DNA from: a virus | IMG/VR virus record: IMGVR_UViG_3300037311_000137 | Coordinates: 1-36,054 of that record | Length of the DNA stretch: 36,054 nt | Direction: 5' to 3' (one strand) | Shown here: positions 1,900 to 36,054 of the stretch, piece after piece | How the letters are laid out: every line of letters starts with the position of its first letter | Position numbering within the stretch: the stretch's first letter is position 1 | Notes under the pieces: model-generated | Seen by the model: only the letters and a program-made list of their open reading frames with translations | Database searches by the model: none | What the model was told of the DNA's origin: nothing | Program-made: the position numbers and the translations under genes

Positions 1900-2100
1900 C
1901 TACGCAATGTGTCTTTTTTGACTCATGCCCCTTTTGACAACCTCCCTCGCTAAAGCGAGCGGATTCCCTCTACAGGCGATGCTTGTCCGCATCGGAGAAT
2001 GTTCATAGCAGCGTTTACGTCACGATCGTGTGTCGATCCGCACTCACTGCACGTCCACTCTCTTATTCCAAGCCCTGCGATACCTTTCGGCCTCGACTCA
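1900..2100 (-). ncRNA. Putative omega-RNA (reRNA) scaffold overlapping the tnpB 3' end (limits approximate)
   Basis: A hairpin at 1943..1963 (UCC(G)CUCGC-UUUA-GCGAG-GGA on the minus-strand RNA) encloses the tnpB stop codon and is followed by GGUUGUCAAAAG. This placement is typical of TnpB guide-RNA scaffolds. Confidence 0.35.
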
Positions 2101-3008
2101 GGCATAGCGCCACAAGTCGAACAGGTTTGGGTTGAATAGCTCTCGTTCACCTCGACATATCTCACGCCATTCATAACTGACTTGTACGCAAGCATTTGTC
2201 GAAACGAGGACCATCCAGAATCTAAAACTAATTTAGCCATTTTGGTTTTTACGAGTGCTGAGGAATTAACATCCCCAACGTAAATGGCATCAAATTGTTT
2301 AACAAGCTCTGTGCTTAGCTTGTGGTGAAAATCTTTTCGTGTGTTTTTAATCTTATCGTGAAGCTTAAGTACAAGGCGCTTTTTGTTTGCTCTTTGCGCT
2401 TTTGCAAGCTTTTCGGCGTACTGTTTTGTGGCCCTCGGTCCCTCAAGTTTTAAGCCGTTTGAAAGCGTCGCAAAGTCTTTAAGCCCAAGATCAATGCCAA
2501 CTTGAGTGCTCTTTGTTTGTTGAGCTTCAGCCTCAAATGTCACAACAAGGTTTAAGTACCATCGACCACGTGAGTCTTGAGAAAAGCTTGAGCCGTCTCG
2601 TATTTTTGCACCAACGGGTAATTCCCTGCTTTTAAAAACGCGAAAGGTTTTTCCAGACCAGACAAAATCATTGCCGTTTGGTTTTATGTGGCGTCCTCTT
2701 AATGGAATCCATCCGGTATTTTTGTGAGACCTCCACCTCAACCACGGACGCTTGTGTTGACTTCGAGACTGTGCGTATTGCAAGCAAACTGCGTTTATTG
2801 TTTGAGAATGTAAATCTAACAACTTTGAGCTACCAGCTGTTAGATTGGTTAAATCAAATCCACTAAGCCACCTTTGACCTCGCTTCACCGCTGTCTTTTG
2901 AGTTTCATTGCAGTAGTTAAATACAAAATTAACCTTGCGCGCCTGTGCGTTTAAAAACCCCGTGTGCGATTTTACGCGAAACTTAAAGGTTTTGGTTTGA
3001 CCGGCCAT
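1950..3008 (-). CDS. tnpB: TnpB (IS200/IS605 OrfB family RNA-guided endonuclease), 352 aa
   Basis: Motifs read directly: GIDLG (RuvC-I Asp), VNESYSTQTCSTCG...CSECG (RuvC-II Glu plus a CxxC..CxxC zinc ribbon) and HDRDVNAAMNIL (RuvC-III Asp). Confidence 0.9.
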   Translation of the reverse strand: MAGQTKTFKFRVKSHTGFLNAQARKVNFVFNYCNETQKTAVKRGQRWLSGFDLTNLTAGSSKLLDLHSQTINAVCLQYAQSRSQHKRPWLRWRSHKNTGWIPLRGRHIKPNGNDFVWSGKTFRVFKSRELPVGAKIRDGSSFSQDSRGRWYLNLVVTFEAEAQQTKSTQVGIDLGLKDFATLSNGLKLEGPRATKQYAEKLAKAQRANKKRLVLKLHDKIKNTRKDFHHKLSTELVKQFDAIYVGDVNSSALVKTKMAKLVLDSGWSSFRQMLAYKSVMNGVRYVEVNESYSTQTCSTCGAMPESRPKGIAGLGIREWTCSECGSTHDRDVNAAMNILRCGQASPVEGIRSL

Positions 3009-6439: not shown

Positions 6440-7057
6440 ATGTACCTAAACTGTAACTTCCCCTTGTTGAAGGCCAATTTCAGGCTTGAGTTCGCATACA
6501 ACCTAGAGCGAAAAGCCGGGCTTGTACCTTGCATGATCTTCGGTGTCGCGTCCATTCCGGGGCGTGCTTTAGGGTTCCACTGCATGTTAGAGAACGGCGC
6601 TCAGTTCGCTCGTATGCCCTTACACGCGTTTAGGGTGGGGAAACATGAGGGAGACGATACAACACCCCTCCTAAGCGATCTGGAGGCTTGGGACGCGCTC
6701 TCGTACGACGTGAGCTGCACTCAGTACGCATATCTTAAAAACATGGCCTGCGAGTATTGGGTGAAAGACAAGGGTTGGGTCAAAGCTCAATATTTTGCGA
6801 CGATAGACTTTGCAGAAAACCCCGAAAGACTCACTACGTTTTCAGAAATGCCTGATGAGCATAAGTGTGCGCACGTTCTCATTAGGGAGGACGGGAATAT
6901 TGCAGCTCAACCCAATAACCGCATTCGATGGATCGACAAAGCGTTTATCACAGCCCCCTTCGTTGAAAGACCCGATTTTAAGGTCAACACACACGTCTTT
7001 GAAAGCGAATCAGCTGTGAGTGAAAACTCGGACGCTTACTTCTATCGTGAGAGTTAA
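6440..7057 (+). CDS. Hypothetical early protein (205 aa)
   Basis: Track ORF and first gene of the rightward block. No SD seen, so the start is uncertain. Confidence 0.65.
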   Translation: MYLNCNFPLLKANFRLEFAYNLERKAGLVPCMIFGVASIPGRALGFHCMLENGAQFARMPLHAFRVGKHEGDDTTPLLSDLEAWDALSYDVSCTQYAYLKNMACEYWVKDKGWVKAQYFATIDFAENPERLTTFSEMPDEHKCAHVLIREDGNIAAQPNNRIRWIDKAFITAPFVERPDFKVNTHVFESESAVSENSDAYFYRES

Positions 7058-7113
7058 AATCACTTAACACTTGAGTTGTTGAAAACTTTCATGCCCTGGT
7101 GTTTAAAGCGCTC

Positions 7114-7464
7114 ATGAACACAGTAATACTTTCAGGACGCGTTGGTGCAGACTCAGAGCTTAAAACCACAAGAAATGGAAAGCCTTACACACAATTCTCG
7201 GTGGCCGTAAATCGGAAATCACCCACTGGAGACGTGAGCGCTAGCTGGTTTGATGTCACATGGTTTTCAGATCATGCGCGCATTCTATCTAAAGGCGACT
7301 ACGTAGTGGTGTATGGCTCCCTCACTCAAGAGACATGGACTGACAAAAGCGGTCAAAAGCGGTACGCGGTTAAAGTCATTGCAAATCAAGTGGTCGTAGC
7401 TGGTAAAACACTTGCAAGTGATGCGCCTCCGCAATCGTCTTTTGAGGACGATGTCTCATGGTAG
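7114..7464 (+). CDS. ssb: Single-stranded DNA-binding protein (116 aa)
   Basis: MNTVILSGRVGADSELKTTRNGKPYTQFSVAVNR... is an OB-fold SSB pattern with an acidic tail SSFEDDVSW. The GTG at 7099 is an alternative start. Confidence 0.85.
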   Translation: MNTVILSGRVGADSELKTTRNGKPYTQFSVAVNRKSPTGDVSASWFDVTWFSDHARILSKGDYVVVYGSLTQETWTDKSGQKRYAVKVIANQVVVAGKTLASDAPPQSSFEDDVSW

Positions 7465-7625
7465 GCGTTGAGCTTTACGCCAGATATATACTTATGGCCT
7501 CGTTCGCCATTGGTTGCGGTGTGTTCTTGTCTCTTCTCTTGGTTGAGATTTGTGTGACCTATTACAAGTCTAAGAAGCAAAAGCGAATATTGTCAGATGC
7601 TTGGGAGAGGTGGGCGAAAAAATGA
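7458..7625 (+). CDS. Small single-TM protein (55 aa)
   Basis: Hand-translated as MVGVELYARYILMASFAIGCGVFLSLLLVEICVTYYKSKKQKRILSDAWERWAKK. It overlaps the ssb stop and forms an ATGA junction with the next gene. Confidence 0.45.
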   Translation: MVGVELYARYILMASFAIGCGVFLSLLLVEICVTYYKSKKQKRILSDAWERWAKK

Positions 7626-8365
7626 AAGCATACCGAAACGGAATTACTAAGACTCAGTTCGTAGCTGAGCTTAAGAAGCACCAAAAGGCAGATCGGTTTC
7701 TTCAAGGTACCTATTGGAATAATGAGGCAAATCGCGGATGTGCTGTGGGGTGCGGCATTAAGTCGATCAATGAATTAAAGCAAAAAAGATTTGGAGCCAA
7801 TAACCACGAAGCGCTTTCTGAATCACTCGGATGGCCTCTTTGGCTCGTGAGACTAGAAGACCGAATATTTGAAAATGTGTCGGTCAAACGATCAAAAACC
7901 TGGCCCGTTGAGGTTGCAGGCGCTATAAAGTCAGGCGCTAATTTAGATCAGGCACTCAACCCTATTCTGATAGAGATTCTAAAGGTTGCAGCGACGGCGG
8001 TTGAAGGAAAAGAAGACCAATATTCTAAGAAATCCTTGAGTGCAATAAAACAAGTTATCAAAGGTTTGTCTGGTAAAGGATCGTTAGACAGAGCTTCTGC
8101 TGCTGCTGCTGCTGCTGCTCGTGCTGCTGCTTATGCTGCTGCTTATGCTGATGTTCGTGCTGCTGCTGATGCTGCTCGTGCTGCTGCTTATGCTGCTGCT
8201 TATGCTGATGTTCGTGCTGCTGCTGATGCTGCTCGTGCTGCTGCTTATGCTGCTGCTTATGCTGCTGCTTGTGCTTCTTTTTCTTTTAACACCCCTGATG
8301 CTTACTCCCACGCAATGGAAACAATCGCCGACAAGGTGCTTGAGGTGTTGAGGAGCACGAAATGA
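7622..8365 (+). CDS. Protein with a globular N-domain (CAVGCG motif) and Ala-rich tandem repeats (247 aa)
   Basis: ATG at 7622 forms an ATGA overlap with the upstream ORF. The C-terminal half is RAAAYAAAYADVRAAADAA x2.6. Confidence 0.8.
   Translation: MKAYRNGITKTQFVAELKKHQKADRFLQGTYWNNEANRGCAVGCGIKSINELKQKRFGANNHEALSESLGWPLWLVRLEDRIFENVSVKRSKTWPVEVAGAIKSGANLDQALNPILIEILKVAATAVEGKEDQYSKKSLSAIKQVIKGLSGKGSLDRASAAAAAAARAAAYAAAYADVRAAADAARAAAYAAAYADVRAAADAARAAAYAAAYAAACASFSFNTPDAYSHAMETIADKVLEVLRSTK
8120..8272. repeat. 57-bp tandem repeat x2.6 (two units 100% identical)
   Basis: Units 8120-8176 and 8177-8233 are identical. A third, partial unit follows. Every Ala codon in 8094-8275 is GCT. Confidence 0.9.
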
Positions 8366-8982
8366 AAAACGAAATTGTAATCGGTGGCGTGAAATACGTG
8401 AGAGCGGATTCTGTGGAAAAAACATTAGGCGTGAATTGGTCCTATGGCGTGAATAGGTCCAATGGCGTGAATGGGTCCTATGGCGTGAATAGGTCCGATG
8501 GCGTGAATGGGTCCGATGGCGTGAATTGGTCCGATGGCGTGAATAGGTCCAATGGCGTGAATGGGTCCTATGGCGTGAATGGGTCCAATGGCGTGAATTG
8601 GTCCCATGGCGTGAATGGGTCCTATGGCGTGAATTGGTCCTATGGCGTGAACAAATCAGCTGGTGTCAATCGTTCGGTTTTTGTCAGCAATCAAAGGGCA
8701 CAAAGCCTGCTCTTTAACAAACCAGTCGATGAGTCACGCGTATCTGACGTCATGGAAAGCTTGCTTCAGCGTTTATGCGGCTGGCGTCCGAAATATAACG
8801 ACATTCACAAGCTTTATCTCGCCAATGGTTCTGACTGGAAATTGACTCCAATATCAGAGGCGAAAGAGCTGTCAAAAGAAGAAGCGTGGGCCGATATGCC
8901 AAAAGAGGCAATTGACTATCTGAAATCAATTCCCGAATTCGATGCCCAAGTGTTTTTTGAGGTTACAGGTTTAAAAGTTTAG
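8362..8982 (+). CDS. Hexapeptide-repeat protein, 14 x G-V-N-x-S-x followed by a ~100-aa C-terminal domain (206 aa)
   Basis: ATGA-coupled to the upstream gene. Fourteen consecutive 6-residue units are read from the translation. Confidence 0.8.
   Translation: MKNEIVIGGVKYVRADSVEKTLGVNWSYGVNRSNGVNGSYGVNRSDGVNGSDGVNWSDGVNRSNGVNGSYGVNGSNGVNWSHGVNGSYGVNWSYGVNKSAGVNRSVFVSNQRAQSLLFNKPVDESRVSDVMESLLQRLCGWRPKYNDIHKLYLANGSDWKLTPISEAKELSKEEAWADMPKEAIDYLKSIPEFDAQVFFEVTGLKV
8428..8679. repeat. 18-bp tandem repeat GGCGTGAATNGGTCCNAT, 12 near-identical plus 2 degenerate units
   Basis: Units listed by hand from 8428. The first 12 differ only at unit positions 10 and 16. Confidence 0.95.
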
Positions 8983-8998
8983 ATAGTCCGGGGGGACA

Positions 8999-9190
8999 AT
9001 GACGATAGTTCAGTTCGCTTTGTTTATGTGTGGGCTTTCTAAAAACGGTGTGTGGTTAAACGCGACACCGAATCAAAAGATTCAATGCTACGAGAGGGTT
9101 ATGGAATGTTTTGAGGACTACGGTCACGGCACCGTCGGGGTCGAGGTTTGTTATAGGTACGCGTTGAAACTGAGAGGAGTTTTGAGGTGA
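8999..9190 (+). CDS. Hypothetical small protein (63 aa)
   Basis: Track ORF with a G-rich SD (GGGGGGAC) directly upstream. Confidence 0.6.
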   Translation: MTIVQFALFMCGLSKNGVWLNATPNQKIQCYERVMECFEDYGHGTVGVEVCYRYALKLRGVLR

Positions 9191-9564
9191 GCATTCACTT
9201 GGGCAATAAGCTTAGAAGACTAAGAGTAGAGAATGAGATAACAATAAGAGATCTCTCAAGGAAAATTGGATTAACTGAAGCCGCAATATCTCAAATAGAA
9301 AATAACAAAAGAACGCCAAGTATTTCCTCAATCATAAAGATTGCTGATTTTTTTGTGGTGTCGATTGACTATTTGGTAAGTAAAAGAGCGTCTTTGATTT
9401 TTTCCGATTATTTTCATGACAAAGAGTTTGCTTTTATTTTTTCAGTTTACGCACAAATGACAAAAAAACAGAAAGAAGAGCTTAAGAGGTATCTTCTTTT
9501 TATTCGCTCAAGCGACAAAATTAATCTGAATTGCCATGATAGAGAGGAGTGTTCACGTGAGTAA
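9187..9564 (+). CDS. XRE-family helix-turn-helix transcriptional regulator (125 aa)
   Basis: LGNKLRRLRVENEITIRDLSRKIGLTEAAISQIENNKRTPSISSIIKIADFF is a classic Cro/CI-type HTH. GTG start with GAGGAG 7 nt upstream. Confidence 0.85.
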   Translation: MSIHLGNKLRRLRVENEITIRDLSRKIGLTEAAISQIENNKRTPSISSIIKIADFFVVSIDYLVSKRASLIFSDYFHDKEFAFIFSVYAQMTKKQKEELKRYLLFIRSSDKINLNCHDREECSRE

Positions 9565-9868
9565 ATATTTAGTTAGTGATCCGCATTCTAATATCACGAA
9601 AGAGTTTGACACCCCGGAGGATGCCCTGGCCTTCGCAAACGAACTCATAAAACACCAATTGGATTCAGGTGGCTGGGGCGAAGAGGTAGAGGATATCGCG
9701 ATATCAAAGATCATATATCGAGCTGAAGCCTCTAAGGTTGTGGAGAAAAAAGATTTTACAATCTGGGACGACTCCACAGGCCGTTGGAGTAATTCTGAAG
9801 GCGAACTATGGCCTGAGGTTGACGATGGAATTGATTTATATGTGGAATACACAATGAAGGAGTGTTGA
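9557..9868 (+). CDS. Hypothetical protein (103 aa)
   Basis: GTG at 9557 is preceded by GAGAGGAG at 7 nt, the same junction motif as at 9187 and 9870. The ATG at 9536 lacks an SD. Confidence 0.6.
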   Translation: MSKYLVSDPHSNITKEFDTPEDALAFANELIKHQLDSGGWGEEVEDIAISKIIYRAEASKVVEKKDFTIWDDSTGRWSNSEGELWPEVDDGIDLYVEYTMKEC

Positions 9869-9869
9869 G

Positions 9870-10118
9870 GTGAGTAAAACAATACCGTTTTTGTGGATCA
9901 AGTCCGATAAATATAAGGACTATCGCTCAAATCCTTCGAGGGTTATCTCGATTGATGAAAGCGGCTACTCCGTGGTCGAATGCGATCTACGATGGAATGA
10001 ATCGGGTGCGACACTTGCCCCTGGAACTTGGGAGTACGACCTAGAAGCGATAAGAGCCGAAATAGTGAAAACGATGACGGCCACTGAATGCCTCAATCGG
10101 TTAAAGGAGATTTTATGA
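9870..10118 (+). CDS. Hypothetical protein (82 aa)
   Basis: GTG start with AAGGAG 7 nt upstream. Confidence 0.65.
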   Translation: MSKTIPFLWIKSDKYKDYRSNPSRVISIDESGYSVVECDLRWNESGATLAPGTWEYDLEAIRAEIVKTMTATECLNRLKEIL

Positions 10119-20422: not shown

Positions 20423-20617
20423 TTAAAAACACTCTTCAATATTGGCAGGAATCTCTACAGACCAGGTTGTTGTGATGTTTTCACATCCTGGTCCCCATAT
20501 GCCCGCACAAGGCCAAATGAAGCCAAAGGTCAAAAGACCCAAACCCTCGACCGTATTGTTTCCGACAAACCCCTCATCAAGAAGCGCTTGCCCGTTTACC
20601 GTCACATCGAAATTCAT
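20423..20617 (-). CDS. Hypothetical small protein (64 aa)
   Basis: Track ORF overlapping the glycosyltransferase 3' end by 41 nt. Confidence 0.45.
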   Translation of the reverse strand: MNFDVTVNGQALLDEGFVGNNTVEGLGLLTFGFIWPCAGIWGPGCENITTTWSVEIPANIEECF

Positions 20618-22802
20618 GCAGCTCCTTTGCTTTCCCTAGCCATTCCTCGGCTACGCGTTCCCAAGAGTGATGCTCAAGATCCATCTTAACACGTGCATAG
20701 GCCTTTTCTCGAATGCGAGCCTCAACAATGTCAGCCCAAGGACCCACATCTTTTTCCTCCTCAGCATCCAAGGTCAAAAGATCCGCACACCCAGCGTCAA
20801 CAAAGGGCTTGAGCGTGTCTTGTAAACCCGCTGTAGCCTTTGCGATTGGATAGACTTTGCTTGCAAGCATCTCTAACGCCGTGATGCAGAATGTCTCAAG
20901 GAAGCGCGTTGGATAGAGCCAGTATTGCTTTGTTGCTAAAGCTTCCCTCAGTACCGATTGCTTCACCCCACCGTGATACTTCACCCAAGGTCTAGCCCGC
21001 ATCATGTCCATCAAGCGCTGAGCCTGTGCTTGCCTTCCATACGCTCCAAAGTGCTCAAGACCATAAAACACATCAAGTGTTGCATTTATGCCACGCTTCC
21101 TCACCTCATCAAGCACAAGCATCGTAAACTCAAGTCCACGGTCAGGGCTTGAAGACCATACAAAGCTATGCTCCTCTTTTTTATCCAAGTCAGGCTCTGG
21201 AAAGAATTGAGACAAGATCCCATTTCTTGTAACCCACACCTTGTCATCTGGAATTGCCACCTGAGACTGAATGAACTTCTTTTGCCATCCAGATAAGACC
21301 GCAATCACATCATAAGTCTCAGTCTGCTCCATGCCCTGAATCAAGATGTCATGACTCCAAGCAATGGTAGGCGCGTCCGTGATCTTGTTGTTGTGCCTCC
21401 ACGCAATATGAAGGTATGGCTTGTTTGTGGCCATGTAATCCGCTGTGACTTGAGCCGGAGCGTACACAACCCCGTCTTCCGCAACCTTTTGAGCTTTAAC
21501 ATTCCCAAACACAATGACTTGTCTGTGGGGTTCCTTTTTCTTAATCCAATGCGCAAGCCAAATAGCAGCGGTTTCGCTTCCACCTGTGAGCTTCTGGAAG
21601 TAAGAATCATAATCCCAATCATGCCAGCCCATGCCAGGCACACACGTGATCACGATGTCATCACACTCTTTTGCGGTCTTGTAAGCCGTCTGCAAATACT
21701 CAATGCGTGACAATTCTTGTTCTATTTGAGGAGACTGCATTGCAAAGTCTTGTTTACCTTGCTCAAGATAGGCTCTCGCTCTCGCGAAATCTCCAAGTGT
21801 CATGTAGATCTGAATAAGCTTTTCAGTCGGATAAGGACCGTACACTAAAGGATTTGAGAATATCGCGCTCATGTGCTGTTGCTGTGGCATGACACACATT
21901 CGAGCTGCTTCATAAAACGGTATCGCATCATGGAAGCGATTCTGAGACGCGTAGGCATCTCCAATCATCACATGAAACTCAGCCCTGGTCGGTGCAAGCT
22001 GCAATCCCATATGAGCGACGTCAATCGCCCGTGCGGGTTGATTACTCATTGCATAGGCCTGAGCCATGAATTGAAGCGCCATCGTTCTATCGTGGCCCTC
22101 AAGGCGTCTGTCAGCAGAGGCAAGCTTAAGCTCTTGAATGGCGTCTACATGCTTGCCATTCTCAAAAAGCTCTTTTCCGTAGTAGTAGCGCATGCGTGCG
22201 TCAAGCTTTTCGCCAGACTTAACCTTGTCCTCAATGATGGAAAGGTTTCGACTTCTATCTCCTGCTAAATCAGCTTCGGTGCGCTTGTGTACGATTTGCC
22301 AAGCAGGACTAAATTGAACAATCGGCGCTTTTGTGAGCCCCGGCTTTGCTACAATTCCTTCGTGGATAAAATACTTCCACTGAAAACGTCCATCGTTCTT
22401 AATGATGCGCTCTCTCGTAAACACACACGTTGGTTGACCTTGTGCGTTTGTGGCATACCAGTAATTTGCAAGCCACATGTCCGCTTCACTTAGCATCTCA
22501 TCCCTAAACGCAATAAAGCGCTCACGGCTTGATAGCACGTCATCGCCATCCATCCACATGATGTAATCAGTCTTTGGGTGAGAGAACGCAAAGTTACGTG
22601 CTTTTGCAAAGTCATCACACCACTCGAAGTGATGGACGATACAGCCTAAGGGTTCAGCCACCTGAACCGTGTCATCCTCTGAACCTGTGTCTGTAATGTG
22701 AATCTCGTCAAAACATCCTTCAATTGACTTCAATAACTCAGGCAAATGATGTGCTTCATTACGCACAATCATTGCCAAAGCGATGGACGGGCGCTTTTGC
22801 AT
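20577..22802 (-). CDS. Tri-domain glycosyltransferase: N-terminal GT2 (GT-A), central TPR repeats, C-terminal GT4-like (GT-B) (741 aa)
   Basis: GT2 domain: IALAMIVRNEAHHL...ITDTGSEDDT...FAKARNFAF...WMDGDDVL. TPR-like helices: YYYGKELFENGKHVDAIQELKLA and YASQNRFHDAIPFYEAA. GT4 domain: LTGGSETAAIWLA and the ExxxxxxxE motif ETFCITALEML. ATG at 22802 has an AAGGAG upstream. Confidence 0.88.
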   Translation of the reverse strand: MQKRPSIALAMIVRNEAHHLPELLKSIEGCFDEIHITDTGSEDDTVQVAEPLGCIVHHFEWCDDFAKARNFAFSHPKTDYIMWMDGDDVLSSRERFIAFRDEMLSEADMWLANYWYATNAQGQPTCVFTRERIIKNDGRFQWKYFIHEGIVAKPGLTKAPIVQFSPAWQIVHKRTEADLAGDRSRNLSIIEDKVKSGEKLDARMRYYYGKELFENGKHVDAIQELKLASADRRLEGHDRTMALQFMAQAYAMSNQPARAIDVAHMGLQLAPTRAEFHVMIGDAYASQNRFHDAIPFYEAARMCVMPQQQHMSAIFSNPLVYGPYPTEKLIQIYMTLGDFARARAYLEQGKQDFAMQSPQIEQELSRIEYLQTAYKTAKECDDIVITCVPGMGWHDWDYDSYFQKLTGGSETAAIWLAHWIKKKEPHRQVIVFGNVKAQKVAEDGVVYAPAQVTADYMATNKPYLHIAWRHNNKITDAPTIAWSHDILIQGMEQTETYDVIAVLSGWQKKFIQSQVAIPDDKVWVTRNGILSQFFPEPDLDKKEEHSFVWSSSPDRGLEFTMLVLDEVRKRGINATLDVFYGLEHFGAYGRQAQAQRLMDMMRARPWVKYHGGVKQSVLREALATKQYWLYPTRFLETFCITALEMLASKVYPIAKATAGLQDTLKPFVDAGCADLLTLDAEEEKDVGPWADIVEARIREKAYARVKMDLEHHSWERVAEEWLGKAKELHEFRCDGKRASAS

Positions 22803-22809
22803 GTGATGC

Positions 22810-23286
22810 TTACTCCTTGGCGACACTTGTTTGAGTGTTTGTCAGAGTCTTTTCACGTATCAGCTCAGTGCCGCCTCTCGCATAGATACTCCAAAGACCT
22901 GAGTTTTTATTGAAGCTAGCATCACCTTCTTGGAATTCAAGGTTACGTTTTGCAAACCCCATAAGAGTTGTGGGGTCTACAGCCGTGTCACCAAAGGAAT
23001 CAGTCACAACACCGACGCGTTGATCGGTTACTTGCAGTGGGTCAAGAACACCTACGATGTAACGGTCAGAGTCTGCAAGCCCCGCTCCACCATCCATTTG
23101 CCACAAGATGCTTTGTGTGGGCCCGTACTCAAATCGGTAAAGACCTGAGCCTGCTGGCGTCTCTGTAATTCCAGGTGCTGTAATCGCACTCACACCATTG
23201 ATTGCAAAGATCGTGAGCGTAGGCGTAAGCCCCGTGTTGTCCGCTGGGTTTCCACTTCCAAAGCGTGCGTAATAAAATTTACTCAT
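22810..23286 (-). CDS. Structural hypothetical protein (158 aa)
   Basis: Track ORF overlapping the upstream gene by 8 nt. Confidence 0.75.
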   Translation of the reverse strand: MSKFYYARFGSGNPADNTGLTPTLTIFAINGVSAITAPGITETPAGSGLYRFEYGPTQSILWQMDGGAGLADSDRYIVGVLDPLQVTDQRVGVVTDSFGDTAVDPTTLMGFAKRNLEFQEGDASFNKNSGLWSIYARGGTELIREKTLTNTQTSVAKE

Positions 23287-31463: not shown

Positions 31464-31800
31464 GTAGAACCTCTTCCATTGATTTACCAAGGTTTGCTTG
31501 AATTTTTTCCTTGTCGCCTTTTCTGCACACGTAAACCGCTGGGTTTCCGTAAGTAAAGAACCCACCTGGCTTAAGTCCACGCCTGTTGAAGTAGTTTACC
31601 ACGTCCTCATCGACTTCAAGCCACTGCTCAGGGTCTTCACCTGAGTTGATAGCCACTTGAGCCGCAAAAGCTCTATCTTGAAACTCACGGATCTTTTCTG
31701 CGATTCCAGTGTAATGTGCATCTCGCGTCATTTCGGGTTGTTTTACTTCCATAATTTCTTTAGGCGGTCTGCCTCTCCTTTTTGTTTCAGTCATATTCAT
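31429..31800 (-). CDS. AT-hook-containing protein (123 aa, KRRGRPPK)
   Basis: Track ORF overlapping the terL-C 3' end by 14 nt. Confidence 0.65.
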   Translation of the reverse strand: MNMTETKRRGRPPKEIMEVKQPEMTRDAHYTGIAEKIREFQDRAFAAQVAINSGEDPEQWLEVDEDVVNYFNRRGLKPGGFFTYGNPAVYVCRKGDKEKIQANLGKSMEEVLHGHSKLDSSAY

Positions 31801-32593
31801 CTAAGTTTTCAGAGTTTCGTTTTTTAATCAACTGTTCGATTGCCCACTTCTCGTAGTTTGCGTTGTGTGGTGAGTGTGGTCTTGGTGTTTGCGGCACCGC
31901 TCCAATTTCAGGATATTGTACGATGTCCTCGATTGAGGCGAGTGCATCCATTAAGTCATCGTGTGCAGCGCGTGGGAAATCATCGTATTCGGATTTTAAG
32001 TGCTCAAAGTCTTCCATCATGTAAATGCGTCCAAACTCAAAGCGTGGGACTAAGCCTTCGATGCGTGCTTCTTTGGTTTGCTTGCCTCGCTTGATGCCTA
32101 CAAGAGGTGGAAGTGTGAGTCTGCGCTTTGATTCCTCTCTCACAAAGTATTCGATTGATTCTTGGAACACTTGAGACTCGTACCCAATCACCATGGGCTT
32201 AATCTTTTGATGCACCTCAAAGATCTTTGACACAATCTCGGTTGGGGTGAGTCTATAGCGTTGAGCAACTCTTACGTACCAGTTGGTGTTAGCGTCCACA
32301 GAGACCACCACAAGGGCCGTGTAGTCGTGTTGCTCTTCTTGACCTATGGCTGGGTCCAAGAACGCAAACGTGTTTGTGGGCATTCCTGGAGGCGGTCCGG
32401 GGGATATTCTCCACCATTCGGGCTTAAACTTTCGAAGCTCATCTGGAATGACTCGGTTTAGGTACTGGTTTGTAAACTTGTAAGACCCAAGCTCGCGCTT
32501 TAACTCATCAAGCTTTTCTTTTGAAAGCTTCTGAGGGAATAGAAGCGACCCATCAGGGCGTATGGCTTGCTCGTAAACAACGTCCCACTTCAT
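31787..32593 (-). CDS. terL: Terminase large subunit, C-terminal part (lid region plus RNaseH-like nuclease domain, 268 aa)
   Basis: FTNQYLNRVIP, FAFLDPA (nuclease Asp) and AAHDDLMDALA. The ATG directly abuts the TAA of the inserted gene. Confidence 0.88.
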   Translation of the reverse strand: MKWDVVYEQAIRPDGSLLFPQKLSKEKLDELKRELGSYKFTNQYLNRVIPDELRKFKPEWWRISPGPPPGMPTNTFAFLDPAIGQEEQHDYTALVVVSVDANTNWYVRVAQRYRLTPTEIVSKIFEVHQKIKPMVIGYESQVFQESIEYFVREESKRRLTLPPLVGIKRGKQTKEARIEGLVPRFEFGRIYMMEDFEHLKSEYDDFPRAAHDDLMDALASIEDIVQYPEIGAVPQTPRPHSPHNANYEKWAIEQLIKKRNSENLDEYD

Positions 32594-32917
32594 TTAAGAA
32601 GACTTAAGCGACATGACTTGTGCGACTACGGTTGCGCCAATTCCCGCAATGTAGAACGGCGCAGGGCCTAAGAAGTCAAGGCGTTCAGCGGTTTTGACGA
32701 TGTAGAACTGGTTTGCAGTGAAAGCAGCCGCAAGTTGTGCAGCAGATAGGGTCTGACCCGCTGGAACCCCGATAATGATTAAGGTGCCACCTGATACGCG
32801 AGCCACAACTCTGTCAGCAACAAAGGCGCTTGAGCCTATCAGTTGTGCGTTTGCAGCCCCTGCCACAAGCGTGTATTGTTGTGCAGTGATCGAACCCGTG
32901 CGTAGTCCTTCAATCAT
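32594..32917 (-). CDS. Ala/Gly-rich 107-aa protein nested between the two terL halves
   Basis: Open frame fills the whole insert, with an ATGA overlap to terL-N and a TAA|ATG abutment to terL-C. Confidence 0.65.
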   Translation of the reverse strand: MIEGLRTGSITAQQYTLVAGAANAQLIGSSAFVADRVVARVSGGTLIIIGVPAGQTLSAAQLAAAFTANQFYIVKTAERLDFLGPAPFYIAGIGATVVAQVMSLKSS

Positions 32918-33636
32918 TTGAGTCCCCCTTCAGTAAGCCCTAAAGAAATCTTATCACACTCATCGATTTCATTTGCAATGATGTGCCCAATTACGTCATC
33001 AATAGCGTATCTAGTTCCACACACAACGTAAATATCCGACCCATCTAGTATGGCCTTATTGTACTGGTAATGGTCAACTACTTTGGTTCTGCCCTCTTTT
33101 GAGCGTGAATTGTTGTTTGAATTGAGGTCATCCGAAATGATGACGTCGTAATGTTGACCAACTTTCACGGTGTTTACTCCACCTGCCGTGATGGATGCTT
33201 CCTTCCGTGGTGCTGATCTAAGAGAGAGTGTAATCTCTCCTTCCCCCCAAGTCGAGCCTTTTAAGTTTGGAAAGAACATTTGCATGATGGGGGATTCTGC
33301 GTGTGCTTTGATCTCTCGAATGAAGTTCTTTGAGTTAGAGTAAATTTCCGAGTCAATGAGTATGGCTTCGTTTGGGTTTTTGAATAGAAGCCTCCATAGA
33401 GGGTATGCAACACAGACAAGTGAGCTTTTGAATGTTCCACGTGGAAGCACGATGAGCTTTCGTTTGGTGTTACTTTCAAGTGCTTTCGTGATTTTGAGAT
33501 GAGTGCTTGGTTGTAGGTCTTTGTAGCCTAGAGCTTGTTTGGCGAATGTGAAGAGGGATCTAGACCAACGGTCACGAATAAGCTCTTGTAGAGCGTCTGT
33601 TTGCTCTTCAATTGTGAAGTGTTCCAGTCCGGTCAC
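32914..33636 (-). CDS. terL: Terminase large subunit, N-terminal ATPase part (240 aa)
   Basis: Walker A-like LPRGTFKSS, Walker B YDVIISDD and coupling motif CGTRY. Confidence 0.88.
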   Translation of the reverse strand: MTGLEHFTIEEQTDALQELIRDRWSRSLFTFAKQALGYKDLQPSTHLKITKALESNTKRKLIVLPRGTFKSSLVCVAYPLWRLLFKNPNEAILIDSEIYSNSKNFIREIKAHAESPIMQMFFPNLKGSTWGEGEITLSLRSAPRKEASITAGGVNTVKVGQHYDVIISDDLNSNNNSRSKEGRTKVVDHYQYNKAILDGSDIYVVCGTRYAIDDVIGHIIANEIDECDKISLGLTEGGLK

Positions 33637-33641
33637 AGACC

Positions 33642-34115
33642 TTAATCTTGGTCTGAAACGTCTTTCGACTCAACCTCAATTGAGTTCATGAGTAGGCTTT
33701 TAAGCATTTGGAAGCGCTCTTCAGCGTCTGGCGCGTTTTGTGTGACGTTTGCGTCAACCTGAACGCGTGCGAGTTTCGGGTATGAAAACTCCATGAGGTA
33801 CAAGAATATTTCGATTGTGCGGAAGGGGTCTTTTTTCCACATGGAGTGCTCTTCGATCTTTTGAAGGATGTACTCAGGGACTGGAATGTTGAGAGACGTT
33901 TCAATGATTTCACGTGCGATACGCTTGGGGGTCATGACGCGTGTGGGTTTAATGGAGTTGTGGCCGCCCTTGTTTGGGTGTGTTTGTCTCACTTGTGGCT
34001 TTTCAATTGCGTATTGGCGGCCTTTGGCGCGGTTGTCTAGGAGTGAATACGAGGTTTCCATTTTAGCGTCTGTGTCTTGACGTCCTGTTCCGCCTCCGTG
34101 CTTTTTATCCGCCAT
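33642..34115 (-). CDS. Putative terminase small subunit (157 aa)
   Basis: Position immediately upstream of terL, with a basic N-terminus. No motif-level support. Confidence 0.6.
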   Translation of the reverse strand: MADKKHGGGTGRQDTDAKMETSYSLLDNRAKGRQYAIEKPQVRQTHPNKGGHNSIKPTRVMTPKRIAREIIETSLNIPVPEYILQKIEEHSMWKKDPFRTIEIFLYLMEFSYPKLARVQVDANVTQNAPDAEERFQMLKSLLMNSIEVESKDVSDQD

Positions 34116-34917
34116 TGATTTGGTCTCCTAAGCGTTTCAGCTCCGCACACATATCGAGGTAGCTACTCGGTGTGCCGATGTCATAGATTTCGGCGTGATC
34201 CTCAAGATAGGTAGGTTGCACACCCACTTGAGAGAGTGCCCATGAGAGGTCAATCTCGCCTGCTTCGTTTGTTGGGGACTGGACTAGGTACTCTCTAATG
34301 TTTTTGTGCAGAAGGTATCGACCACGGACTGCAAGCCCGCTTGCGAGACCCTTTGGCTTTTCTGTAACCTTGTAAAGCGCGTGGGTCTTGGATTCGCGGT
34401 CTAGGTCTAACTGTAAGATACCATATCGCTCAGGTTCATACACGTGCCTACAAAGCACGAAGGCACAGTCCTTTTTGTGATACACCCGGTCAGCTGGTTT
34501 CATGATGTAAGGTAATTTACGGTCGCTCTTAATAACAATTTCGTCCGGAAGTGTTATTAAGAAGTGGTCGCTATTAACATTTTTCATTCCAGTGAGTATT
34601 GCGTGCCCTAAACCTAAGGGTTCGGGTTGGACAATGGTTGTGTAGTTTGAGACGCCTGCAATCTTGAGCGCATGAAAGTAGGATGGGTTTTGAAGGGGTT
34701 GATTTAAGACAGGGTCACGTGGAGCTTGTGGCACGACTAGGGTTACGTGTGGGGTTTTTGTGGGCTCAAGGGAGCGTGCGATTTCAAGCGCTTCCATGAC
34801 GACAACTGAGAGGGCTGGAAGGTTATTGACGGGCAGGAGTGCCTTTGAGAGGCCCGGCACTTCAGACCATGGCGACCAACGTGTTGCGCGTCCTGCTAAA
34901 GGGATGATGATATCCAT
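34105..34917 (-). CDS. GalU-like sugar-1-phosphate nucleotidyltransferase (UTP-glucose-1-phosphate uridylyltransferase-like, 270 aa)
   Basis: IIPLAGRATRW...SKALLPV (the GxGTR..K signature region), LGLGHAILTG, FLITLPDEIV, RYGILQ and VTEKPKG...VRGRYLL parallel GalU motifs. Confidence 0.8.
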   Translation of the reverse strand: MDIIIPLAGRATRWSPWSEVPGLSKALLPVNNLPALSVVVMEALEIARSLEPTKTPHVTLVVPQAPRDPVLNQPLQNPSYFHALKIAGVSNYTTIVQPEPLGLGHAILTGMKNVNSDHFLITLPDEIVIKSDRKLPYIMKPADRVYHKKDCAFVLCRHVYEPERYGILQLDLDRESKTHALYKVTEKPKGLASGLAVRGRYLLHKNIREYLVQSPTNEAGEIDLSWALSQVGVQPTYLEDHAEIYDIGTPSSYLDMCAELKRLGDQINGG

Positions 34918-35930: not shown

Positions 35931-36054
35931 CGTGCAGGTGTCGGTGCGTTCACTTGGTACTTAAAACAGGCCATGTCTTAAAACCACGTCGAACCGTTTT
36001 CATGAATATTAAGACTTTTAACGATTGTCAAAGATTATTCGTTTGAGATTACTG
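35931..36054. repeat. Right copy of the 124-bp direct terminal repeat
   Basis: Identical to 1..124. Confidence 0.95.

Follow-up and report, generated by a model that had tools for sequence, protein, structure and literature searches.

A family of early phage proteins with hexapeptide-repeat arrays that vary at two residues per unit

The stretch of DNA analysed here (henceforth the window) comprises the 36,054 nucleotides of the IMG/VR virus record IMGVR_UViG_3300037311_000137, and this work concerns one of its genes (8362–8982), whose product carries a tandem array of six-residue units. We found that this gene belongs to a family in which the DNA units of each array evolve in concert, the variation is restricted to two codons of the unit (codons 4 and 6), the number of units is polymorphic between near-identical phages, and the genes sit in early modules of phage genomes. 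The pattern is a property of the family and not a product of chance. The explanation that we favour, with moderate confidence, is that the array is the repeat scaffold of an early phage protein in which two hypervariable residues per unit are held under diversifying selection as part of a fast-evolving binding surface.

The repeat gene and its array

The repeat gene, read directly from the sequence, encodes 206 aa (8362–8982, + strand, stop codon counted). A Shine-Dalgarno-like GAGGAG (8350–8355, +) was read 6 nt 5' of its ATG, and its start overlaps the stop of the upstream gene as ATGA; together these indicate that the reading frame of the repeat is the real one. The protein, which is identical to P0001 in the protein collection that we searched, opens with an N-terminal segment of 22 aa (8362–8427, +), without the DUF7666 or YdhT_N domain that most relatives have at this place. 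Twelve core units of 18 bp follow (8428–8643, +), of the form GGCGTGAAT-N-GGTCC-N-AT and encoding G-V-N-[W/R/G]-S-[Y/N/D/H], and unit-by-unit cutting from 8428 then yields two degenerate units, GVNKSA and GVNRSV (units 13 and 14; 8644–8679, +). The remainder (8680–8979, +) consists of a cap (FVSNQRAQSLLFNK) and a conserved, mainly helical C-terminal domain of about 100 aa, recognised from invariant columns and from AlphaFold2. In the family alignment, the invariant columns of this domain are W141-P143-N146-N147, W176, M179-P180, SLPEFD and ITG.

An earlier description of the array, made by a model from the letters and their open reading frames (ORFs) and here called the sequence-only reading, turned out to be right in every detail when the units were recounted: 16 of the 18 bases are invariant across the 12 core units, only bases 10 and 16 vary, and the two degenerate units come after. 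Any two core units are therefore at least 16/18 (89%) identical. Base 10 is G in five units, T in four and A in three (W/R/G via NGG), while base 16 is T in five, A in three, G in three and C in one (Y/N/D/H via NAT), and both are first positions of their codons, 4 and 6 respectively. Among the core units the proportion of synonymous differences (pS) is 0 at all six codons, and that of non-synonymous differences (pN) reaches 0.30 at codon 4 and 0.28 at codon 6. Tandem Repeats Finder describes the same array as having a period of 18, 12.4 copies, 91% matches and a score of 350. If the three alleles at one site and the four at the other are taken to require a minimum of five independent substitutions, the chance that five random hits on 18 positions fall on no more than two of them is 4608/18^5 = 0.0024. 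Over all 14 units, the variable positions hold five basic residues (four R, one K) against three acidic ones (three D), and because of this near-neutral charge we rejected the DNA mimic that the sequence-only reading had raised as something to look for. The longest exact repeat inside the array is 47 nt, so the array can be resolved by ordinary short reads. On the opposite strand, the array also reads as an ORF of 60 aa, (GPIHAI)n (8425–8607, –); it is a by-product of the repeat without independent support, and we rejected it as an independent gene.

Variation and turnover across the protein family

In metagenome-derived collections we retrieved 299 homologues at E <= 1e-3, none of them named, with E-values down to 1e-80 for full-length relatives. 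The C-terminal domain alone accounts for 173 clusters at 50% identity among 1.84 billion proteins. GenBank phages gave no megablast match to positions 7000–10000 and, by tblastn of the C-terminal domain, a single relative, an unannotated gut phage record. Searches of Pfam, PHROGs, NCBIfam and PADLOC returned only sub-threshold low-complexity matches (Collagen, collagen-like tail fibre, HxsA4, serine-rich or Scl adhesins); the PADLOC defence-system models did not match the repeat protein and a sequence-profile search of the PDB yielded nothing meaningful. Literature searches on DUF7666, YdhT and hexapeptide or hypervariable phage repeats turned up nothing about the family.

The members follow a common plan of an optional N-domain, 5 to about 30 hexapeptide units, a cap (GILNSYGVDxALFLANK or a variant) and the conserved C-terminal domain of about 100 aa. 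The N-domain is DUF7666 (confirmed for member P0005), PF27195 'YdhT_N' or, as in the window protein, none. The motif of the C-terminal domain that defines the family, W-x-P-x-F-N-N ... EAW-x-x-MP ... SLPEFD ... ITG following array and cap, is present in the window protein. The contig that carries member P0029 (L076) also encodes a second DUF7666 protein, at 11–862, with a weak pentapeptide-repeat match, which suggests that different kinds of short-repeat array commonly share DUF7666 as their head domain. Loci of the family comprised 62 on viral contigs of IMG/VR and 11 in genomes, to which two more (L074 and L075) were added, and these provided the nucleotide analysis set of 42 distinct arrays and 639 units. 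The genome bins with a family member are labelled Bacteroidales, Dysgonomonas, Lachnospiraceae, Clostridia, Eubacteriales, Christensenellales and Saccharibacteria. In member P0235, Trp replaces a conserved Gly (at unit position 1, and in IFWVEV for IFGxEV and VTWI for ITGI) and other Gly residues are kept; judging from this replacement, it probably derives from a phage that reads TGA as Gly (genetic code 25) but was translated with TGA as Trp.

All recovered arrays show the pattern (G-V/I-N/S/A-x-S-x)n, with bases 10 and 16 the most variable. We measured deviation at each base as the mean fraction of units departing from the consensus of their own array, over 38 arrays. It amounted to 0.42 at base 10 (variable in 37 of the 38 arrays) and 0.45 at base 16 (variable in all 38), compared with 0.20 and 0.17 at the second bases of the same codons (bases 11 and 17), 0.06 and 0.10 at their third bases, 0.11 at base 8 (an N/S switch), and 0.07, 0.02 and 0.03 at the four-fold synonymous sites (bases 3, 6 and 15). 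Diversity at bases 10 and 16 exceeds that of the four-fold sites of the same arrays 6–20 times. Within arrays, pN/pS is 0, 0.23, 0.34 and 0.19 at codons 1, 2, 3 and 5, but 2.7 at codon 4 and 1.2 at codon 6. The position-restricted, non-synonymous variation claimed for the window array is thus found family-wide, well in excess of synonymous change. The sequence-only reading would have taken changes elsewhere in the units of relatives for ordinary drift; such changes do occur weakly, at the second bases of codons 4 and 6 and at base 8, but the scaffold positions do not vary.

Two further comparisons show how the units are related. Differences at four-fold sites amount to 0.083 within arrays and 0.623, near saturation, between arrays; units homogenised within arrays and saturated between them are the mark of concerted evolution. 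Moreover, Gly, Val/Ile, Asn and Ser are kept via different synonymous codons in different arrays, including TCN/AGY serine switches, which places the selection on the protein and not on the DNA word. In distant members the six-residue period persists with a changed scaffold pair at positions 2 and 5 (GVNxSx, GIxxGx, GGNxIx, GCxxCx), and this swap of sizes between sub-families (V/S, I/G, G/I, C/C) suggests that the two residues pack together in the core.

The alphabets of the variable codons are restricted: residue 4 is mainly W, R, G or E and residue 6 mainly N, D, Y or F, with aliphatic residues rare at both. Codon 4 is NGG in 399 of the 639 units (TGG 134, GGG 126, AGG 113, CGG 26) and GAG in 55, and it is never GCG, CCG or CAG; codon 6 is mostly NAY, plus TTC, AGC, AAA and GAA. 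Gly at codon 4 is written GGG in 126 of 145 cases, while the scaffold Gly of codon 1 is GGC, GGT or GGA, a bias that frequent interconversion of W, R and G would produce, as would homogenisation that fixes the second and third bases of the Trp codon. The order of the x residues along the arrays is close to random (autocorrelation z <= 2.7); examined for a coil period, lags 1–7 gave only a weak signal at lag 2 (z = 1.7 and 2.7).

Comparison of close relatives indicates how arrays change over short times. Near-identical phages differ by insertions or deletions (indels) of whole units, with no point changes: eight units between L016 and L017, one between L008 and L013 and three between L006 and L008, at flank identities of 98.7–100% (100% downstream for L016/L017 and upstream for L008/L013). 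In the pairs L009/L033, L003/L008 and L022/L024, the flanks are 99–100% identical and the backbone codons the same, and the x residues are largely different. Turnover of the arrays is thus much faster than that of the DNA around them, unit indels coming first and re-writing of the x positions after. The arrays are also recurrent assembly breakpoints, as seen from the contig ends: of the 62 viral contigs, about 15 (L001, L016, L017, L022, L039–L041, L045, L047, L049, L050, L052, L053, L055 and L056) stop in the repeat gene itself or no more than about 250 nt from it, and in every case they do so on the side of the array. Heterogeneity within samples may be the cause of these breaks.

For the structure, we made two AlphaFold2 runs with different alignments (A1 and A2), the second restricted to homologues with at least 14 units. 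In both, the C-terminal domain is confidently predicted as five helices, with a predicted local distance difference test score (pLDDT) of 74–98 for residues 100–206, and the last four or so units are modelled confidently as beta structure with strands every 12 residues. Foldseek searches found no match at E < 1 in the PDB, the top insignificant ones being LpxA and CAT-type acyltransferases (E > 2), and only an uncharacterised homologue in BFVD. Because G, V/I and S are conserved with strict periodicity, an ordered repeat fold, perhaps oligomeric, is more plausible than a linker.

In the account that we favour, the array is the central repeat domain of an early-region, non-virion phage protein from a large, unnamed and nearly all-metagenomic family. 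Residues 1, 2, 5 and mostly 3 (G, V/I, S and N) form a scaffold under purifying selection, and residues 4 and 6 are hypervariable within their restricted alphabets. Frequent gain, loss and exchange of whole units keep the DNA units of an array near-identical, with homogenisation via slippage or unequal recombination, possibly aided by the Erf-type annealing protein and single-stranded DNA-binding protein (SSB) of the phage. The most economical cause of the diversity at bases 10 and 16 would then be diversifying selection on two outward-facing residue ladders, in a protein that would bind a variable host or competitor factor, for example a defence or takeover target. The sequence statistics lend good support to concerted evolution, combined with selection that keeps two residues per unit diverse, as the mechanism of maintenance. 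We infer that residues 4 and 6 are exposed at the surface and that selection, rather than targeted mutation, maintains them. An accessory role in host–phage conflict is likely, given the association of the family with the neighbourhoods described below.

Several observations sit less well with this account. Both AlphaFold2 runs leave most of the array unfolded (pLDDT about 30 for residues 1–81), and it is possible that the array is disordered or obligately oligomeric. C is scarce at both variable bases (26 of 399 and 18 of 181), a deficit that could come from mutational bias, and selection by itself does not fully account for the gradient from first to second to third base in codons 4 and 6. 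The family-wide pN/pS of codon 6, at only 1.2, is compatible with a mere lack of constraint. Exact-match scans of metagenome and viral contigs found no near-identical copy of the window gene, and no relative of known function was found by sequence or structure in Pfam, PHROGs, NCBIfam, PADLOC, the PDB or with Foldseek.

The alternative that survives best, although we consider it unlikely, is relaxed constraint alone: residues 4 and 6 would simply be unconstrained and the arrays young products of unit duplication, with neither positive selection nor a special function. The codon 6 ratio, the near-random order of the x residues and the frequency of unit duplications and deletions would all be expected on this basis. 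However, homogenisation acts on all sites and should leave one neutral level of diversity, whereas bases 10 and 16 stand far above the four-fold sites and also above the third bases of their own codons. Unconstrained residues would likewise not be expected to have strongly non-random alphabets (GAG 55 times but GCG, CCG and CAG 0, and few aliphatics), nor arrays re-written between phages whose flanks are 99–100% identical.

Genome context and the remaining explanations

Bases 1–124 of the window are repeated at 35931–36054 with 100% identity, and this 124-nt terminal direct repeat shows that the genome, of about 35.9 kb, is complete and either was assembled as a circle or has direct repeats at its termini. 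Its virion genes include those for portal, scaffold, major head protein, a two-piece large terminase and an SU10-type adaptor, and its replication and recombination genes those for the Erf-type annealing protein, SSB and a DnaB-like helicase. The early cluster on the + strand encodes, in order, a PHROG-3704 protein, SSB (7099–7464, +; Pfam/PHROG match), an Ala-repeat protein, the hexapeptide protein and helix-turn-helix regulators. SSB is a recurrent neighbour of the family, adjoining its members in 19 loci; other members are found after a DnaC-like loader and RusA, upstream of the terminase in early operons, or between DNA methyltransferases and a Lar restriction-alleviation gene. In the loci examined the neighbourhoods are early, accessory and conflict-type, and never tail modules.

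The upstream gene that is coupled to the repeat gene by the ATGA overlap (7601–8365, +) encodes the Ala-rich repeat protein, whose family is unrelated to that of the hexapeptide protein. It contains a 57-bp repeat in 3.1 copies (8101–8275, 96% matches) in which every Ala is GCT and whose peptide is AAAYAAAYADVRAAADAAR. Its own unnamed family comprises 410 metagenomic proteins, in which a conserved 'KGCAVGC ... RxEDRIFEG' N-domain is followed by a length-variable tract rich in Ala, Tyr and Asp and by a short helix at the C-terminus, so two adjoining genes (7601–8365 and 8362–8982) are both repeat-bearing and length-variable. We rejected the idea that this protein is a detached N-domain of the hexapeptide family (hhalign probability 0.1%); nor is it a conserved neighbour. 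Elsewhere in the phage genome, a TnpB or IS605 OrfB-like protein with OrfB_IS605 and Cas12f1-like TNB domains is encoded at 1950–3008 (–). The large terminase looks split (31787–33636, –): the ORF at 32914–33636 matches positions 271–465 of phrog_38 and that at 31787–32593 positions 468–707, with an ORF of 107 aa between them (32594–32917) that has no family match. The arrangement might reflect insertion of a mobile gene or a terminase that is genuinely in two pieces.

A bolder version of the binding idea, which we regard as improbable, is that the array is a modular, reprogrammable recognition device reading a linear or periodic ligand (nucleic acid, glycan or repeat protein) by a code like that of transcription activator-like effectors (TALEs), or else that two bases per unit are rewritten by a targeted mechanism free of reverse transcriptase. 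As a recognition device, each hexapeptide would display two specificity residues, W/R/G/E at one and N/D/Y/F/H at the other, and the device would belong to the early programme of phages from several bacterial phyla.

Targeted mutagenesis as such, in which a dedicated mechanism akin to diversity-generating retroelements (DGRs), or an undescribed one, writes the bases at unit positions 10 and 16, seems to us more doubtful again. The variation does fall on single bases, with three alleles at 10 and four at 16; the first > second > third gradient and the C deficit at both sites are not obviously selective; and NGG and NAY resemble the outcome of adenine mutagenesis of AGG and AAY template codons. 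Yet the scan of all ORFs of at least 250 aa in the complete 36-kb genome against Pfam or PHROGs gave no match to a reverse transcriptase, and repeat and self-comparison of the genome revealed no second copy of the array that could act as a template repeat, in agreement with the absence of both that had been noted from the letters alone. Unit positions 7, 8 and 17 are adenine in every core unit, the sequence contexts of the two variable sites share no motif, and phage pairs with identical flanks show unit indels only and no point changes.

It is very improbable that the repeat protein is a glycosylation substrate or decoy, with functional N-x-S sequons modified by the phage's own glycosyltransferase. 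The enzymes behind this suggestion, a GalU-like one and a glycosyltransferase linked to tetratricopeptide repeats (TPRs), are indeed encoded: a GT2-TPR-GT1 protein of 748 aa (20577–22826, –) and a nucleotidyl transferase (34105–34917, –). The first, which is the sole glycosyltransferase, lies within the virion module and the second near the terminase, and their placement points to the virion or the DNA, rather than the repeat protein, as what is glycosylated. Among the Pfam matches of the glycosyltransferase at E <= 0.001 there is no Glyco_transf_41, the family of cytoplasmic N-glycosyltransferases. Periplasmic glycosylation of the PglB type would require a signal peptide, and by eye none is obvious in the repeat protein. 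The 14 consecutive sequons described for the window protein are real, but a repeat built for its sequons is not supported by the family: only 441 of 644 units have N as residue 3, and whole arrays of relatives have A, S or V instead (GVAxSx, GVSxSx; arrays L025, L028, L030, L034, L029, L048 and L062 lack Asn3) while Ser5 and the hypervariable positions persist. At the level of the family the glycosylation idea thus breaks down, and it is not supported; for the window phage itself, it has the sequons and the enzyme genes in its favour.

Still harder to sustain is a DNA-level element, in which the 18-bp repeats would be replication-origin iterons or a recombination site inside a replication-module gene, as in lambda O. 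The array adjoins SSB and is near the DnaB-like helicase gene, and its 18-bp tandem unit falls within the size range of plasmid iterons. However, arrays differ from one another by synonymous changes with G, V/I and S conserved, the TCN/AGY switches among them, which makes an iteron role unlikely as the main constraint; in addition, the copy number ranges from 5 to about 30 and the repeats are always in frame between conserved protein domains. A dual role as protein and DNA element is possible. Finally, a collapsed or chimeric assembly has next to no credibility: the contigs ending at or near the gene do show that arrays break assemblies and that unit counts may be wrong, but the architecture recurs in more than 40 independent arrays that come from different studies and assemblers, and the window array has short exact repeats, keeps the reading frame and lies within a self-closing 36-kb contig.

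Significance and comparison with known systems

Hypervariability in phages is usually discussed for tail fibres and the targets of DGRs, whereas here it is carried by a widespread family of early, non-virion proteins that homogenises its scaffold while holding two residues per six-residue unit diverse, a regime known from fungal NOD-like receptors (NLRs) with repeats of high internal conservation (HIC) and from TALEs. The contigs concerned were binned with metagenome-assembled genomes of Bacteroidales, Dysgonomonas, Lachnospiraceae, other Clostridia and Saccharibacteria, and they probably also include a phage reading TGA as Gly. If the variable ladders form a binding surface, the protein would be a candidate fast-evolving anti-defence or host-takeover factor, and its array a very compact natural scaffold for engineered binders. 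In practical terms, such arrays interrupt assemblies from short reads, and they mark phage variation at the level of strains.

Among protein repeats, profile matches were obtained with collagen-like Gly-X-Y proteins of phage tail fibres and bacterial adhesins, all of them sub-threshold (Pfam Collagen at 24.1 bits against a cut-off of 27.2; PHROG collagen-like minor tail). A collagen triple helix was rejected: it needs Gly at every third residue and tolerates neither W nor R there, whereas the array has an invariant Gly only once in six residues and W or R as residue 4 of seven of the 12 core units. Unlike collagen-like tail proteins, moreover, the repeat gene is in the early module and not among tail genes. 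The six-residue period with one aliphatic residue per hexad recalls the left-handed beta-helix (Hexapep), which, like a solenoid in general, the sequence-only reading had considered compatible with the array and whose motif is [LIV]-[GAED]-X2-[STAV]-X. In the phage array, however, the small residue is three and not two positions from the aliphatic one and Gly stands before rather than after it, and the period of the AlphaFold2 models in the last units is 12 instead of 18 residues. With this register of V, S and G and no match to Pfam Hexapep (PF00132) at E <= 1, a canonical left-handed beta-helix seems unlikely. HxsA (NCBIfam NF038313) was discarded as well, at 26.6 bits against a cut-off of 55 and with repeats that are N-x-S and not His-x-Ser; no radical-SAM partner was found among the ORFs scanned.

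The likeness to the variable repeats of DGRs lies in a phage-encoded protein diversified, mostly non-synonymously, at a few NAY-type codons. DGR mutagenesis acts on all adenines of the template, whereas the three adenines noted above are invariant in all 12 units, and the variable region is a tandem array instead of a C-type lectin or Ig tip. Lacking adenine specificity, a template and, among the ORFs scanned, a reverse transcriptase, the system was ruled out as a DGR. TALE repeats are nearer: they are near-identical tandem DNA units that differ at two codons, evolve by repeat recombination and carry two specificity residues each. The phage units are likewise nearly identical and vary at two codons, but TALE units are helical hairpins of 33–35 aa that each read one DNA base, and the variable residues of the phage unit are non-adjacent (4 and 6), with no evidence of DNA binding or of a code of one unit for one ligand.

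The phage family agrees best, in all sequence-level signs, with the HIC repeats of fungal NLRs (HET-E / NWD WD40, ANK and TPR), in which near-identical DNA units carry a few hypervariable positions under diversifying selection, their number is polymorphic, and units are lost, gained and shuffled, with unequal crossing-over as the proposed homogeniser (PMC13449251). The variable positions of those repeats are thought to set ligand specificity (PMC13449251). There are clear differences, in that the phage unit has 6 aa (18 bp) instead of about 42 aa, two of its six residues vary, the protein has neither a NACHT or NB-ARC ATPase nor a death domain, and there is no mutagenesis of the repeat-induced point mutation (RIP) type. 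HIC-type designates an evolutionary class and not a homology family, and its features can be recognised here one after the other: identity of units within a gene at or above about 70–80% (89% or better in the window array), hypervariable positions that are fixed and show a non-synonymous excess (37 of 38 and 38 of 38 arrays; pN/pS of 2.7 and 1.2 against 0.34 or less), and polymorphism of unit number between close relatives, seen in the relatives' pairs L016/L017, L008/L013 and L006/L008. The hypervariable repeat regime itself is known; what is new is its carrier, an uncharacterised family of phage proteins.

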